A stretch of 64,000 nucleotides of DNA. Source: Bdellovibrionales bacterium (lineage in GTDB: Bacteria > Bdellovibrionota > Bdellovibrionia > Bdellovibrionales > CAYMLA01). Position numbers and translations under genes: made by a program. The notes under the pieces were generated by a model, which made no database searches, was not told where the DNA came from, and saw nothing but the letters and a program-made list of their open reading frames with translations. This document shows, piece by piece, positions 42,198 through 62,424 of the stretch (its first letter is position 1; each line of letters starts with the position of its first letter). The DNA lies in contig OZ244239.1 in assembly GCA_965217115.1 (NCBI GenBank), positions 902,392-966,391 on the forward strand, given 5' to 3'.

Positions 42198-42959
42198 TCA
42201 AACCTTTTGCCTTAAACCTTTTTCTATAAAACTCTTCACTAGAGGAATCTCAGATTTTAAAAAATCCTCTGATGTTCCTGCAAACAAAACTTTCCCCCCA
42301 TCAAGCATGGCAACACTGTCACTTATTCGAAAAGCCGCATACATATCATGGGTTACTACAATTGATGTTATCCCCTCTCGATGATTATGTGTACTTAGAA
42401 TTAAATTATCAACCATCTCTGCCCGTATAGGGTCTAGTCCAGTTGTGGGCTCATCATAAACTAAAATATCTGGGTCCAAGGCTAAAGCCCTGGCCAAGCC
42501 CACGCGTTTACGCATTCCTCCACTCAACTCTGAAGGCATCTTGCCATAATGCTTTTCTTCCATTTCCACTAATTTTAATTTCTGCAAAGCGATTTCATTC
42601 ACCTCTTTAGGTTTTAAATCACGACGATGTTCAAATAAAGGAAAGCAAACATTACCAAGAACTGTCTCATCATCAAAGAGAGCTGCATGCTGAAACAACA
42701 TTCCAAAATTACAACGAAACCGAGTGAGCGCTCTTTGAGACATTACCGATAAATCACAGCCCAAAACTTCAATCGCTCCCCTCGTCGGAGCTAAAAGACC
42801 TAAAATATGCCGCAAAAGAACACTCTTACCCGCTCCACTATAGCCTATAATAGAAGTGATTTTTCCTCTTGGGATTTCAAAGTTCATTCCATCAATGATG
42901 TAATCTTCTCCATCATTGAATGTTTTATACAGGTTTTTAACTGAAACTGCCGTTTTCAC
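42198..42959 (-). CDS. mlaF: ABC transporter ATP-binding protein (MlaF-like)
   Basis: Walker A 'GYSGAGKS', signature 'LSGGMRKR', Walker B 'ILVYDEPT'. Confidence 0.9.
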   Translation of the reverse strand: MKTAVSVKNLYKTFNDGEDYIIDGMNFEIPRGKITSIIGYSGAGKSVLLRHILGLLAPTRGAIEVLGCDLSVMSQRALTRFRCNFGMLFQHAALFDDETVLGNVCFPLFEHRRDLKPKEVNEIALQKLKLVEMEEKHYGKMPSELSGGMRKRVGLARALALDPDILVYDEPTTGLDPIRAEMVDNLILSTHNHREGITSIVVTHDMYAAFRISDSVAMLDGGKVLFAGTSEDFLKSEIPLVKSFIEKGLRQKV

Positions 42960-43756
42960 TACAAAACCCCTATAAAAGAGTAATAAATACGAATCAAATT
43001 AGTTAAAAAATAATCAAGAACAATGATCAGAACCATGCTCGTCACCACACCTCGGTTCGTCGATTCACCAACTCCCTTCGCTCCACCCGTCGTAAAAAAG
43101 CCTCGATACACACAAATCGTTGAAAAAACAAAACCAAACACAGATGCCTTTAAAAGGCCCTCAGCAATATGGTGAGGTTCCAGATTTTTACGAATTTTAT
43201 CCCAAAAAATAGCCTCATCCAACTTGAGCAAATTCACACATAGAAAATAAGCTCCCAATATAGCTACAAAATCAAAAATAGCGCAAAGTACTGGCATTGA
43301 AATAATCGCTGCATAAATTCTCGGCACTACGAGATATTGCTTAGAATTAATTCCCATAACTTCGAGGGCATCAATCTGCTCACTCACCCGCATTGTACCT
43401 AGCTGAGCAGCCATTGCTCCTCCTGCCCTCGCCGAGACAATAAGACCTGCTAAAACAGGGCCCAATTCCCTCGTAATACCGAAAGCCACAGTGGAGCCCA
43501 CCAAGTTAACAGCATTGACTATCTTAAAACCTAAAAATACCTGAAAAGCCAATGCCAATCCCGTAAATAAACCTGTCAATACGATAATGAGTACCGATCT
43601 ATTACCAATAAAGTAAATATGCTGAATCAACTCAGGAATACGATAGGGTCGAGTGAAGCTCAGACAAATGGACTCTGAAAAGAAGACAGCTATTCGTCCC
43701 ATTTCTAAAATAAGCTGATAAAATAACTGAAATATGCTGTTCAATAAATTCTTCAC
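42959..43756 (-). CDS. mlaE: ABC transporter permease (MlaE-like)
   Basis: 'ITRELGPVLAGLIVSARAGGAMAAQLGTMRVSEQIDALEVMGI' is the MlaE-family signature region. Confidence 0.9.
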   Translation of the reverse strand: MKNLLNSIFQLFYQLILEMGRIAVFFSESICLSFTRPYRIPELIQHIYFIGNRSVLIIVLTGLFTGLALAFQVFLGFKIVNAVNLVGSTVAFGITRELGPVLAGLIVSARAGGAMAAQLGTMRVSEQIDALEVMGINSKQYLVVPRIYAAIISMPVLCAIFDFVAILGAYFLCVNLLKLDEAIFWDKIRKNLEPHHIAEGLLKASVFGFVFSTICVYRGFFTTGGAKGVGESTNRGVVTSMVLIIVLDYFLTNLIRIYYSFIGVL

Positions 43757-43797
43757 GTTGCTCGATCCACTTCATCAATTTTTTTAAAGAACTGATT

Positions 43798-44991
43798 TTA
43801 CTTTAAAATCCGAGGAACCCGTGGGCTAATACCTGTAAGAATCTCATAAGGTATCATTTCCGCCTGATGAGACAACTCACTTACACACAAGATCACCGAT
43901 CCCTCTTTACCAAATAAAGTAAAATTTTCTCCTTCCTTAGGGGTCTTCCCCTTTATTGCCAATTCTGTTACATCAAAGAAAGTATACCCCATACACACTC
44001 GACCGACTTGTGGAACACGCTCTCCCTTGTACAAAGCTAGACTTTTGTTAGATAAGCAGCGTGGATACCCATCAGCATAACCACAGAAAATCAAAGCCAG
44101 AAGAGAGTCAGATTCTGCTTTCCAAGTTCCTCCATAGGAGATTTTCTGCCCTTTTTTCACCTCACGTACAGACATCACCTCTCCCTTCAAGGACATAACT
44201 GGGCGCAAATCAAAATTTTCTCTTTTTATATTCTCTGGCAAAACCCCATAAAGAGCCAAGCCTGGTCGCATTCCCTTAGCTACAGACAGTAACTCCTTTG
44301 GGAAAATCTCTTCTCTGAGTAATTCAATAAGCCCCAAAGCCCCTGGACTGTTAAGACAATGAATGTCAACACCCTCGCACCACTCGCCAAGATCTCGCAT
44401 AAATTTCTTAAAAAGAGTTAACTGTCTAATACTATCGCCAAGTGGATCCGCAATATCTTCTCCTGCCATTAAATGAGTGCCTATGCCAATGATCTTCACT
44501 GTCGAACAAGCAACAATTTCTTCTTTTATTTTTTCTATTTCATCATGAACAAACCCCATACGAGACATTCCTGTATCGAGTTTAATATGTATCGGGTACC
44601 TCTTTTGAGTCTCCTCTTTTGAAAAAAACTGAGACAATACTTGAGACAAAGCCCTCCACTGCCTCCAACTTCCAACAACGGGCGTACAACCATTTTTGAT
44701 TAACTGATTTGCACCTTCCTGGGAAAAACCTCCAAAAACTAAAATCTCTGCCTGGATATTGGCTTCACGTAAAGCAACAGCCTCTTCAACAAGGCTCACG
44801 CCCAGATGAGTCACACCCTCTTCTTCTAAAATTCTCGCCACCGAAATCAATCCATGGCCATAACCATCGGCTTTCACCATTGGACAAAAGAATGGACTCC
44901 CCATTTCTTTATTGATCGCTAACAAAAAGCGACAATTATGCCTAAGATTTTTTCCACTGATTTCGGCAAAAGTATTACGAAATTGTTTCAA
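43798..44991 (-). CDS. alr: Alanine racemase
   Basis: PLP-Lys motif 'MVKADGYGHG' and C-terminal beta domain 'YGG...' with 'GRVCM'. Confidence 0.9.
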   Translation of the reverse strand: MKQFRNTFAEISGKNLRHNCRFLLAINKEMGSPFFCPMVKADGYGHGLISVARILEEEGVTHLGVSLVEEAVALREANIQAEILVFGGFSQEGANQLIKNGCTPVVGSWRQWRALSQVLSQFFSKEETQKRYPIHIKLDTGMSRMGFVHDEIEKIKEEIVACSTVKIIGIGTHLMAGEDIADPLGDSIRQLTLFKKFMRDLGEWCEGVDIHCLNSPGALGLIELLREEIFPKELLSVAKGMRPGLALYGVLPENIKRENFDLRPVMSLKGEVMSVREVKKGQKISYGGTWKAESDSLLALIFCGYADGYPRCLSNKSLALYKGERVPQVGRVCMGYTFFDVTELAIKGKTPKEGENFTLFGKEGSVILCVSELSHQAEMIPYEILTGISPRVPRILK

Positions 44992-57429: not shown

Positions 57430-57597
57430 AATGCTAGTCTACTTAATTGTAGCGTAAATCAACTGTAACGTAAATTATTAATAAGCCACTCAGAAAGAAT
57501 CAGGCTCAAGAAAAAGGCCAATTTCGACCCATGCTTTAAAACGATGACAATTATTTCGGGAAGGTATTAAGAAAACATGCTTAAATAGCCACAATAA

Positions 57598-57744
57598 TCA
57601 ATGAATTTCCCCGCCGTTGGGCGTCGGTTCCATATTTGATTGTCTTTCTCTCTGTTCCTTTTTCTCTATAAATTTTCTAAGTTTTCCTGAACAAGAAGTT
57701 ATCCAATTAGCTACACCAGAGAAACAACATTCAGCAGCTGCCAT
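57598..57744 (-). CDS. Candidate 48-codon ORF in the murD-ftsW gap (speculative)
   Basis: Hand translation gives 'MAAAECCFSGVANWITSCSGKLRKFIEKKEQRERQSNMEPTPNGGEIH'. Below the ORF-track cutoff, and no convincing SD. Confidence 0.15.
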   Translation of the reverse strand: MAAAECCFSGVANWITSCSGKLRKFIEKKEQRERQSNMEPTPNGGEIH

Positions 57745-57787
57745 CAATAACTGACCACTTATTTTTTCATTTAATGCCGTCGGATTA

Positions 57788-59180: not shown

Positions 59181-60257
59181 TTACCTCAACTTTAATGTAC
59201 TAATGCTTAAAATAGCTAACAATATAGAAACAATCCAAAAACGGATAATAATCTTTGATTCATCTAGCCCCTTCAATTCAAAATGATGATGGATAGGAGC
59301 CATCTTAAAAACCCTCTTTCCTGTCAGTTTAAAAGAAATCACCTGAGTGATCACCGACAGAGCTTCAACAACAAAAATTCCTCCAAGTAAAACCAAAAGC
59401 AATTCATTCTTACTCAAAATAGCCATAATTCCCAGAAAACCACCCAAGCTGAGACTTCCTACATCACCCATAAAAACTTGAGCTGGATAAGAATTAAACC
59501 AAAGAAATCCCAGCCCTGCAGCGACAACCGTTGCACAAAAAGGCGCCAATTCACCAGCACCTGCTACATACGGGATCTGTAAGTACTCAGCTAAAATAAA
59601 ATGCCCAGCAACATAAGCAAACAAAGCAAACGTTCCCGCGCAAACTATCACTGGGAAAATTGCCAAACCGTCCAACCCATCAGTCAAATTAACACTATTG
59701 GCACAACCCACAACCACAAAGGTCGCAAAAGGAATATAAAGAACCCCTAAATCAAACACTAGATTTTTAAAAAATGGCACATGAAGCTCAGTGGAAAATT
59801 CACAAAAATAAACCAGATAAGAAACAACCAATCCACTGATTAGAAACTCCACTAGTAAGCGAATTCTACCTGAGAGTCCTTTACTTCCTTTTTGCTGAAC
59901 TTTCATCGAATCATCAATATAACCAATCACTCCAAAACTAAAAGTGACTATCAGAGCTGCCCACACCAAGGGGTTAAAGAGATCCATCCACATCAAACAA
60001 GGAATTAGCACACTTAGTAAAATTAAACCTCCACCCATCGTGGGAGTTCCTGTCTTCTTTAAATGTGACTCGGGCCCATCATCGCGGATAGTTTGCTTCA
60101 TTTGCTTGCGAACCAAACGACGAATAAAACGAGGACCCGACAACCAAATAAGAAAAAAAGCCGTAAAAAAAGAAATGAACGTACGGAAAGTAATATATCG
60201 AAAAATATTAAAGCCAGATATCTGCTCCGACAAAGAATAGAGCCACTGATACAACAT
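59181..60257 (-). CDS. mraY: Phospho-N-acetylmuramoyl-pentapeptide transferase
   Basis: 'GTPTMGG', '[13 protein letters not shown]' and 'MAPIHHHFE'. Confidence 0.96.
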
Positions 60258-60358
60258 GAATTCCCAACTCCTCTAGATCAAGATTCAGACCCTAGCATAA
60301 AAGGCTTAGCTATAGCAAGGGGGAATAATGGGCAAAACACTCTATATGTTTGATATTA

Positions 60359-61012
60359 TTAAAAAAATCCCCCTTGATTTCCCTGATTATTCTCAAAAAA
60401 ATCAAAATCAATGCTGATAGCTGCCGCTAATATAATTGCTTTCTGTGATGATTCCCAGCTCCAATCACCAAAATCAATGGAAAAGCTGTCTGCATCACTA
60501 AAGGCTTCCTTCAGCAGTCCCTGCCATTTTTTATTAATTTCTCCGATTTTCTGATGACGGTTATTAAAAACCGAAAAGCGCCATAACTGCCATAATGGAG
60601 AACTAATACGACCAAAAATATTTCCATCTCTCTCGACAAGGTCATACTTTTTATACAATAACCCAAAACGGCGACGGACACACCCTATATACTGTCCTCT
60701 GTCATCCATAACGTTTAACTCAGAAAACAAAAAGAAAAAGTTTCTTGAGAAAAATAGCAGAGGGGATTTTTCGGTATTCATCACATCTATCTCTAAGGAC
60801 CGATGAGAACGTAAAATCCAACGTTTTAACTTCGTTGACCAGTTTCCTCCTCTTTCAACAATAACAGCCAAATGTCCACCGTTAGAATTCAAAAGATTAT
60901 AATAATTCTTTGCTTCCCAGTCTATAAGGATCTCCATCCACTCTTTTTTCTGTGAAACAATTAAGCTTTTTTCTAAATCCAATAACTGTTGATATGATAT
61001 AACTAATTTCAT
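60359..61012 (-). CDS. Phospholipid-scramblase-family (PLSCR/tubby-like fold) protein
   Basis: Colinear by eye with human PLSCR1. 'EAKNYYNL' parallels 'ETNNKYEI'. 'KKWQGLLKEAFSDADSFSIDF...KAIILAAAISIDFDFFE' parallels 'KHWTGILREAFTDADNFGIQF...KAVMIGACFLIDFMFFE'. ATG 61012 starts 2 nt after the murF stop. Confidence 0.75.
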   Translation of the reverse strand: MKLVISYQQLLDLEKSLIVSQKKEWMEILIDWEAKNYYNLLNSNGGHLAVIVERGGNWSTKLKRWILRSHRSLEIDVMNTEKSPLLFFSRNFFFLFSELNVMDDRGQYIGCVRRRFGLLYKKYDLVERDGNIFGRISSPLWQLWRFSVFNNRHQKIGEINKKWQGLLKEAFSDADSFSIDFGDWSWESSQKAIILAAAISIDFDFFENNQGNQGGFF

Positions 61013-61014
61013 CC

Positions 61015-62424
61015 TCAATCCTTCAAGCCTAATTGCTCTGATACTCCCCATTTTTGCAGAATTCTCTCTAACTTCATTCCACGAGAACCTTTAAGGACAA
61101 CCAGTTCAAACTTATCTAAGCAATTGCCATATTCATCAGCCCACTTTTCTAAAAAAGATTTCGATGAACGAAACTGACCTGAAAAATTAGCCCTCTTCAA
61201 ACCTTCATTAAAAGAGACAACACTCTCACCAATGAACCAAATTTCATCGGAATTCTTGCCAGCTAAATATCCAACCTCTTCATGGGCTTTTTCCCTCTCT
61301 TGACCCATCTCTAGCATTTCACCCAAAATAACTAAAGATTTTCGTTCTTTTCTGGAAGTTCTTGCAAGGTTCTGAAAAAGAGCTTTCATGCTTTCTGGAT
61401 TAGCATTGTATCCATCAAAAATAATTTTCGTCTTATCTTTCTTTAAGACTTGATTTCGCCCCCAATAGCTCTGACAAAACTTCAGCCCACACCAAATATC
61501 TTCTCCTTCAAGCCCCACAGACAGAGCTAAAGCACTTGCCGCCATTAAATTTTGTCCATTATGCAAGCCAAAAACATTTACTTCACAAGAGCCTGTAACT
61601 CCTCCCACTCTTCCATCAATACGCAGTGGCTCAAACCCCTGAGCCTTAACATTTAAATTTACATCACAATTCATTTCTTTTTGGCTAAAAGTTTTTATTT
61701 GATCATTAGTATTTTTAAATTTCCCCATCATCTTTAATGTCAAAGGATCATCTAAGTTGAATACTCGTATGATAGAATCTGAATTATGATAAATCTCCTC
61801 TTTAGCTTGAGCCACCTCCTCTAAAGAAGAAAAGAACTCCATATGGGCTCTACCAATATTCAAACACACCACGACATTTGGTTCAGCAATTTCCACTAAA
61901 CGCGCTAATTCACCTTTATGGTTCATGCCCATTTCGCAAATAACTATTTCACTATTTTCCTCGGCTCCAAGTAATGTGAATGGAACTCCCCAATGATTAT
62001 TAAAACTTCCTCGACTCTCATGAACTTTTTTAAACTTTTCTATTATTTTTTTTGTAAACTCTTTGGTTGTCGTCTTACCGTTAGAGCCTGTAATACCAAT
62101 TACTTTAAATTTATTACGACGACGCCAGTAGTTTGCTAGATCTTGAAGCCCCCTTAAGGTGTCTCTAACTTTTATCACTGTGACTTTTCGACTCACCTTC
62201 ACATCAACATCTTCATGGACAATCAAACAACTCGCCCCTTTTTCCACTGCTTGTATTAGAAAAAAATGACCATCAAATTGCTCTCCCTTGAGAGCAAAAA
62301 ATATTTTCCCCTCTAGATTATTACGCGTGTCACTGCCCGTGCCAGAAAAATCAGTCTGCACCTGAGAGACAACCTCTCCACCTGTATTCTCCTGTAATTC
62401 CTTAAGAGTTAATTTCCATGCCAT
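61015..62424 (-). CDS. murF: UDP-MurNAc-tripeptide--D-alanyl-D-alanine ligase
   Basis: 'GITGSNGKTTTKE', 'EMGMNHKGE' and 'DGYNANP'. Confidence 0.93.
   Translation of the reverse strand: MAWKLTLKELQENTGGEVVSQVQTDFSGTGSDTRNNLEGKIFFALKGEQFDGHFFLIQAVEKGASCLIVHEDVDVKVSRKVTVIKVRDTLRGLQDLANYWRRRNKFKVIGITGSNGKTTTKEFTKKIIEKFKKVHESRGSFNNHWGVPFTLLGAEENSEIVICEMGMNHKGELARLVEIAEPNVVVCLNIGRAHMEFFSSLEEVAQAKEEIYHNSDSIIRVFNLDDPLTLKMMGKFKNTNDQIKTFSQKEMNCDVNLNVKAQGFEPLRIDGRVGGVTGSCEVNVFGLHNGQNLMAASALALSVGLEGEDIWCGLKFCQSYWGRNQVLKKDKTKIIFDGYNANPESMKALFQNLARTSRKERKSLVILGEMLEMGQEREKAHEEVGYLAGKNSDEIWFIGESVVSFNEGLKRANFSGQFRSSKSFLEKWADEYGNCLDKFELVVLKGSRGMKLERILQKWGVSEQLGLKD

Follow-up and report, generated by a model that had tools for sequence, protein, structure and literature searches.

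A scramblase-family gene between murF and mraY in the dcw cluster of one Bdellovibrionota lineage

Introduction

The canonical order of the dcw cluster is mraZ...murE-murF-mraY-murD-ftsW-murG-murC...ftsZ, and the scramblase family is best known from eukaryotes. In the 64,000-nucleotide stretch of Bdellovibrionales DNA analyzed here (the whole of which we refer to as the window), a gene of this family stands between murF and mraY. If this placement were functional, it would connect the PLSCR fold with the stage of bacterial cell-wall synthesis at which a lipid-linked precursor first arises, as a preliminary description of the locus had suggested, and would offer a handle on what the barrels of the PLSCR family do. 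We therefore asked whether the position of the gene reflects such a link or an event confined to the lineage of the window. The gene is a member of a known family in an unusual place, and we found no evidence for a new cell-wall mechanism: the placement looks like a gene insertion in one lineage and not like a conserved link to cell-wall lipid chemistry, because neither any other family member examined nor the closest sampled relative has it.

Results

An additional gene in a canonical dcw cluster

The 217-aa reading frame, the product of which begins with MKLVISYQQ and ends with GGFF, lies where the preliminary description had placed it, on the minus strand, which that description had left unstated (Table 1). 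As it had also reported, 2 nt separate the murF stop codon (TGA, 61017-61015) from the ATG of the scramblase-family gene (61012-61010). A Shine-Dalgarno-like GAAGGA is located 6 nt 5' of this ATG. An alternative ATG at 61051 would yield a 230-aa product overlapping murF; in an alignment with 58 homologues, the 217-aa start fits their N-termini better than the 230-aa start.

Both flanking genes were verified with NCBIfam models (TIGR01143, 369.6 bits vs. a cut-off of 288.6 for murF, and TIGR00445, 413 bits vs. a cut-off of 192 for mraY), which corroborates the reported location of the gene between murF and mraY in the dcw cluster. The murE, murD, ftsW, murG and murC genes likewise score above their NCBIfam cut-offs, and murB, ftsQ, ftsA and ftsZ, further downstream, are Pfam assignments. 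With the scramblase-family gene denoted X, the order is murE murF X mraY murD ftsW murG murC murB ftsQ ftsA ftsZ, that is, the canonical order on one strand, with an unrelated gene between murF and mraY as the sole extra.

Table 1. Positions of the scramblase-family gene, its parts and its neighbours in the window
Feature	Position	Strand	Basis
PLSCR/Scramblase-family (PF03803) gene, 217 aa	60359..61012	-	ORF, Pfam, AF2, Foldseek
murF, UDP-MurNAc-tripeptide--D-Ala-D-Ala ligase, directly upstream	61015..62424	-	TIGR01143, Pfam Mur ligase domains
Shine-Dalgarno-like GAAGGA inside the murF 3' end	61019..61024	-	read from the sequence
Spacer from the scramblase-family stop to the mraY start, 101 nt	60258..60358	-	
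mraY, phospho-MurNAc-pentapeptide transferase, downstream	59181..60257	-	TIGR00445
FFFLF aromatic stretch, residues 92-96	60725..60739	-	alignment A1, BLASTP register
Residues 173-184, DADSFSIDFGDW, counterpart of PLSCR1 273-DADNFGIQFPLD-284	60461..60496	-	alignment A1, BLASTP, PMC7150476
C-terminal hydrophobic helix (predicted), residues 188-205, SQKAIILAAAISIDFDFF	60398..60451	-	AF2, Kyte-Doolittle, PMC2639001

No terminator-like site was detected between murF and mraY, and promoter-like hexamers in this interval are no more common than in shuffled sequence. Given also the shared strand, the 2-nt gap and the Shine-Dalgarno-like site, the scramblase-family gene is likely to be co-transcribed with murF and probably also with mraY, in agreement with the co-transcription that had been considered probable from the 2-nt gap. 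A hairpin across the stop codon of the gene is no more stable than those in shuffled sequences (z = 0.85), and there is no Rfam match in the spacers.

Membership in the scramblase family and comparison with PLSCR1

Judged by its sequence, the 217-aa protein is a clear member of PF03803 (Scramblase), with a match far above chance (147.2 bits, E = 5.8e-43, cut-off 25.4) that spans residues 12-208 and model positions 19-221 of 221. The family assignment in the preliminary description was thus borne out. Of the two Pfam profiles that had been proposed for checking it, PF03803 gave this match, whereas PF04525 (LOR) produced no match to the protein at E <= 1 in the Pfam search; precomputed PF04525 matches are faint and occur in some homologues only. 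Neither NCBIfam nor PADLOC yielded a model for the 217-aa protein.

Aligned by BLASTP with human PLSCR1, the protein is 26% identical across 203 aa (E = 1e-16). The alignment is colinear through the C-terminal helix, as previously claimed, and reproduces both pairs of parallel segments that had been quoted. The Ca2+-binding motif of the PLSCR1 sequence used in this comparison, DADNFGIQFPLD, matches the published motif, 273-DADNFGIQFPLD-284 (PMC7150476). The two proteins share the full-length match to the family HMM, the predicted architecture of a 12-stranded barrel with a C-terminal hydrophobic helix, the block K-x-W-x-G-x3-E-x-F-x-D-A-D-x-F-x-I-x-F, and the IDFxFFE end of the helix. They differ in that the window protein has no proline-rich N-terminal domain (it contains 2 Pro in total, and the barrel starts near residue 16) and no CCCPCC palmitoylation motif, in place of which R90-N-F-F-F-L95 is aligned (1 Cys in total). 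Both missing elements are features of animal PLSCRs, and CCCPCC lies outside the Pfam domain definition. Furthermore, unlike human PLSCR1, the window protein is bacterial, operon-borne and predicted to be cytoplasmic.

The scramblase family has been found in eubacteria, and its C-terminal helix has been described as buried (PMC2639001). PLSCR1 itself is reported to show weak Ca2+-dependent scrambling when overexpressed and to have a barrel too short to cross the bilayer; in the A549 cells tested, Ca2+-activated scrambling was reportedly dominated by TMEM16F (PMC10371867). Accordingly, the term 'scramblase-fold' used in the preliminary description holds for family and fold, but as a name it overstates the case, given that the helix is predicted to be buried and that scrambling by PLSCR1 is reported to be weak (PMC2639001, PMC10371867).

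Conserved motifs in bacterial homologues

In an alignment of 59 bacterial homologues (alignment A1), D173 and D175 are invariant, as are the preceding K161-W163-G165-E169-F171. Within the Ca2+ motif D-x-D-x-F-x-I-x-F-x-x-D, the window protein has D173, D175, F177, I179 and F181; the Asp at position 12 is not conserved, and the window protein, which has G-D-W there, differs in this last Asp from human PLSCR1. In the same alignment, R90 and F96 do not vary, and conservation at F92, F93 and S97 is 90% or higher.

The pattern R-x-F-F-F-x-F-S (residues 90-97, 60722-60745) is conserved in the bacterial homologues and aligns with the CCCPCC of PLSCR1. We conjecture that this Phe-rich stretch may be a candidate loop for lipid-free docking to the membrane.

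All 27 family-invariant residues of alignment A1 are kept in the window protein. It departs from the consensus at 7 of the 62 columns with 90% or higher conservation, compared to a median of 1 for the homologues, a divergence that is suggestive only because the sample was picked by similarity to the window protein and is dominated by one clade. These departures could mark a change of function.

Predicted fold and contact with the membrane

The AF2 model, built on the 59-sequence alignment, has a pLDDT of 85.2 and a pTM of 0.86, and consists of 12 strands and a C-terminal helix (residues 188-205). In a Foldseek comparison with the PDB, the top match is At5g01750 (1zxu; probability 1.00), and the Tubby domains of TULP1 (3c5n and 2fim) rank third and eleventh (probability 1.00 and 0.99, TM 0.46-0.48); the TM scores of the 1zxu and TULP1 matches range from 0.44 to 0.56 overall, and their E-values are marginal. 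Bateman et al. had identified the same relatives for PLSCR1 (PMC2639001). The topology of a barrel around a helix is common to the predicted protein, At5g01750 (LURP-one-related, DUF567, PF04525) and TULP1 (PMC2639001), but the likeness is a structural one, read from the model, and has no counterpart at the sequence level: searches of solved structures with the single protein and with the 59-sequence profile against the PDB returned nothing relevant, and thus no solved structure for any member of the scramblase family. Matches to MEF2 and oligoribonuclease in the PDB were dismissed as noise (E > 0.3).

The highest Kyte-Doolittle mean over 19 residues in the 217-aa protein is 1.08, so that no segment reaches the transmembrane level, and no signal peptide is apparent at the N-terminus. 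In the model, helix 188-205 (SQKAIILAAAISIDFDFF) is predicted to lie within the barrel, and as a transmembrane helix it would be too short as well as too acidic. With its sole hydrophobic helix predicted to be buried, and with the barrel of PLSCR1 reported to be too short (PMC10371867), the fold argues against a transbilayer carrier. Polytopic flippases of lipid carriers (MurJ, FtsW/RodA, Amj, DedA/UptA) were considered as a possible type and rejected on account of this predicted burial and the lack of a transmembrane segment.

Homologues of the protein and their gene neighbourhoods

A word-indexed search retrieved 284 homologues, the best non-self match being 54% identical; the best 120 of these 284 are 205-271 aa long (mostly 205-225 aa) and carry PF03803. 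An exhaustive phmmer search yielded 1668 clusters (at 50% identity) with E <= 1e-3. Bacterial PF03803 proteins are thus already present in databases, where the JGI label is 'uncharacterized protein YxjI'. The window protein resembles its homologues from Myxococcota, Acidobacteriota and Bdellovibrionota in length (205-225 aa), in the invariant residues and in sequence (36-54% identity), and is among the more divergent members.

We scanned 106 homologue loci, 48 from species-representative genomes and 58 from metagenomes. Their hosts (L001-L048 and L056-L113) are nearly all Myxococcota and 'Deltaproteobacteria' MAGs, Acidobacteriota (Holophagae, Thermoanaerobaculia, Acanthopleuribacter and Sulfidibacter), Bdellovibrionota/Oligoflexales, and SAR324, a distribution that is possibly biased because the patterns used for searching came from the window protein. 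When the window MurE, MurF, MraY, MurD, FtsW, MurG and MurC were compared by tblastn with all homologue loci, dcw genes were found within the fetched flanks of 0 of the 106 loci (the flank was long enough in 82 of the 106), and the window copy is therefore the only one in a dcw cluster among the loci sampled.

All-vs-all clustering of flanking ORFs revealed no conserved neighbour gene: the best cluster covered 8 of 47 loci, and part of the apparent neighbour clusters among these 47 loci consisted of antisense ORFs from high-GC DNA, which were set aside as spurious. Each of the six closest homologues was also inspected singly; they are in unrelated contexts, next to a radical SAM gene (1 locus), rhodanese and peptidase C11 genes (2 loci), a methionyl-tRNA synthetase gene (1 locus), MAPEG, GT2 and isoprenoid genes (1 locus), and an aldehyde dehydrogenase gene (1 locus).

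Two observations on single homologues were made in passing. P0088 (L115, 5001-10642) adjoins genes for a MAPEG protein, a GT2 glycosyltransferase, a squalene/phytoene synthase, an amine-oxidase-type desaturase and a polyprenyl synthase, a set that, from its gene content, looks like an isoprenoid-lipid cluster, as a single case and not a pattern of the family. P0251, P0261 and P0304 are 418-456 aa long, with N-terminal extensions of 220-260 residues before the scramblase domain.

The murF-mraY junction in relatives

MurF homologues place the window in Bdellovibrionota, with named matches at 47-50% identity from Bdellovibrio, Bdellovibrionaceae and Pseudobdellovibrionaceae. The nearest sampled relative, a 14-kb contig (L052), is 58% identical to the window in MurF, 81% in MraY, 85% in MurD and 65% in FtsW. 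Its gene order is murE-murF-[174 bp]-mraY-murD-ftsW-murG, with no scramblase-family gene; the 174-bp spacer contains no remnant of such a gene and is not alignable with the window spacer. A Bdellovibrionaceae MAG (L054; MurF 47% and MraY 73% identical to the window) has murF-[34 bp]-mraY, again with no inserted gene. The survey of murF-mraY junctions in related genomes that had been proposed as a check on the association with lipid I and lipid II thus went against it. As far as sampled, with L052 as the one reasonably close relative found, the insertion is specific to the window lineage, because the gene is missing from the junction in both relatives.

The rise in identity to L052 from 58% in MurF, upstream of the junction, to 81% in MraY, downstream, led us to consider recombination at the junction. 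This was rejected: the same pattern is seen against L054, and the step therefore reflects the intrinsic conservation of the two proteins.

In another Bdellovibrionota-like contig (L053, 5001-7200; JGI Ga0679475_0001081), the dcw cluster is broken directly after murF; the next genes, all on the opposite strand, are those for a YkuD_2 protein, a histidine kinase and a response regulator. Within Bdellovibrionota, then, murF|mraY is not a fixed junction.

Composition and origin of the inserted gene

The GC content of the scramblase-family gene is 0.356 and its GC3 is 0.339, compared to GC3 values of 0.28-0.36 in its dcw neighbours. Around the gene, flanking repeats are limited to short chance matches, and mobile-element genes are absent. 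In a rough NJ tree without support values, the window gene groups with the low-GC homologues P0002, P0088 and P0058, with Bacteriovoracaceae nearby, and Myxococcota sequences (60-72% GC) stand apart. A composition matching that of the neighbours, together with the retention of every family-invariant residue, points to an old, intact, lineage-specific insertion. These data are consistent with a move within the phylum long ago or with an ancient transfer, and not with a recent acquisition.

Discussion

We consider it likely that the gene codes for a cytoplasmic barrel with peripheral membrane binding, and that a lineage-specific insertion has tied its expression to the dcw operon. The protein would be a cytoplasmic 12-stranded beta-barrel of about 210 aa around a hydrophobic C-terminal helix, belonging to the Tubby-like superfamily, in which the acidic D-x-D-x-F-x-I-x-F motif (Ca2+-binding in PLSCR1) is kept and a conserved Phe-rich stretch replaces the palmitoylated cysteines. 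In most bacteria that carry it, the family gene stands alone, in varied contexts; in this deep-branching Bdellovibrionota lineage, one copy has lodged at the 3' end of murF, before the mraY spacer, where it most likely shares the dcw operon transcript and is coupled in translation to murF. Docking would be peripheral, on the cytoplasmic side of the inner membrane, with the aromatic loop and the cation-bridged acidic motif making the contact, and the docked protein would bind or perturb lipid head groups, with no transbilayer carriage of lipid I or lipid II. The dcw insertion would then amount to division-coupled expression of a scramblase-family gene. Both this attachment to the membrane and the lack of any part in peptidoglycan synthesis are inferences; co-expression with murF is most likely a matter of position only.

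The preliminary description had read the position of the gene as reflecting a link to lipid I and lipid II. Among more than 100 family loci, this position, which is the sole argument for such a link, occurs only in the window, and the nearest relative lacks it; it is thus no evidence of a conserved partnership with MraY. Of the two outcomes that had been named in advance as counting against the proposal, a strain-specific gene and rejection of the family by profile searches, the former essentially describes the position, whereas the profiles upheld the family. Co-option of the scramblase-family protein into peptidoglycan precursor synthesis, with selection keeping the operon position, for example because the protein arranges anionic lipids or undecaprenyl phosphate for MraY in the cytoplasmic leaflet or promotes flip-flop of lipid-linked intermediates, is in our assessment unlikely. 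It would be in keeping with the 2-nt gap, the Shine-Dalgarno-like site and the lack of a terminator-like site before mraY, with an intact ORF that keeps all invariant residues, with a host-matched composition that implies an old arrangement and long residence in an essential operon, with the unusual divergence at 7 of 62 near-invariant columns, and with the weak Ca2+-dependent scrambling by overexpressed PLSCR1 (PMC10371867). However, none of the 106 other family loci is near any dcw gene, L052 has no such gene at its murF-mraY junction, the protein has no transmembrane segment and the PLSCR1 barrel is reported to be too short for the bilayer; moreover, the cluster contains FtsW, and within the 64-kb window nothing points to a missing flippase. 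We regard it as very unlikely that a Tubby-like barrel, translationally coupled to MurF, was recruited as an accessory to the membrane steps of peptidoglycan synthesis that works at the cytoplasmic leaflet and, in the vicinity of MraY, concentrates or redistributes undecaprenyl phosphate, lipid I or anionic lipids.

The restriction of the placement to the window lineage, as well as the larger number of departures from the consensus than in most homologues, would also be expected of a neutral passenger, inserted by chance, tolerated because operon expression was undisturbed, contributing nothing and perhaps decaying. That the gene is such a passenger seems improbable to us, given a frame uninterrupted over 217 codons, 27 invariant residues kept, a good start context, a matched composition that implies long residence without decay, and a confident AF2 model. 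Least probable, to the point that we hardly credit it, is a recent horizontal transfer in which the gene came from a eukaryote or from a distant phylum (Myxococcota, for example) and was dropped into the dcw cluster. Although the family is best known from eukaryotes and several of the top-identity named matches are Myxococcota (52%), identity is 26% to human PLSCR1 vs. 54% to the best bacterial match, GC and GC3 are indistinguishable from those of the neighbours whereas Myxococcota loci have 60-72% GC, the gene is not accompanied by flanking repeats or mobile-element genes, and the NJ tree (again, without support values) puts it with low-GC bacterial homologues.

In the literature that we searched for bacterial PLSCR homologues, for YxjI/COG4894, and for scramblase together with Bdellovibrio, we found no study characterizing a bacterial member, and the association with the dcw cluster, which the preliminary description had believed to be undescribed, was likewise not found there. 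As the evidence stands, the bacterial PLSCR homologues are a compact, well-conserved family of about 1,700 sequence clusters, experimentally untouched, with a Phe-rich stretch in place of the palmitoylation motif. The lineage with a dcw-borne copy offers a convenient natural test case for the function of this family, and not proof of a conserved pathway; should recruitment into precursor synthesis prove true, a bacterial PLSCR homologue would for the first time have a physiological role assigned to it.

Two further features of the window were noted outside the murF-mraY interval. Genes for MlaE and an MlaF-like ABC protein (phospholipid transport), together with an alanine racemase gene, are located on the same strand at 42198-44991, a few kb downstream of ftsZ, and are ordinary envelope genes. 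The gap between murD and ftsW (57430-57787, 358 bp) contains no ORF of at least 50 aa and has no Rfam match; the corresponding junction in L052 is only 26 bp long, and the gap in the window could be the site of an internal promoter or of another unannotated element.
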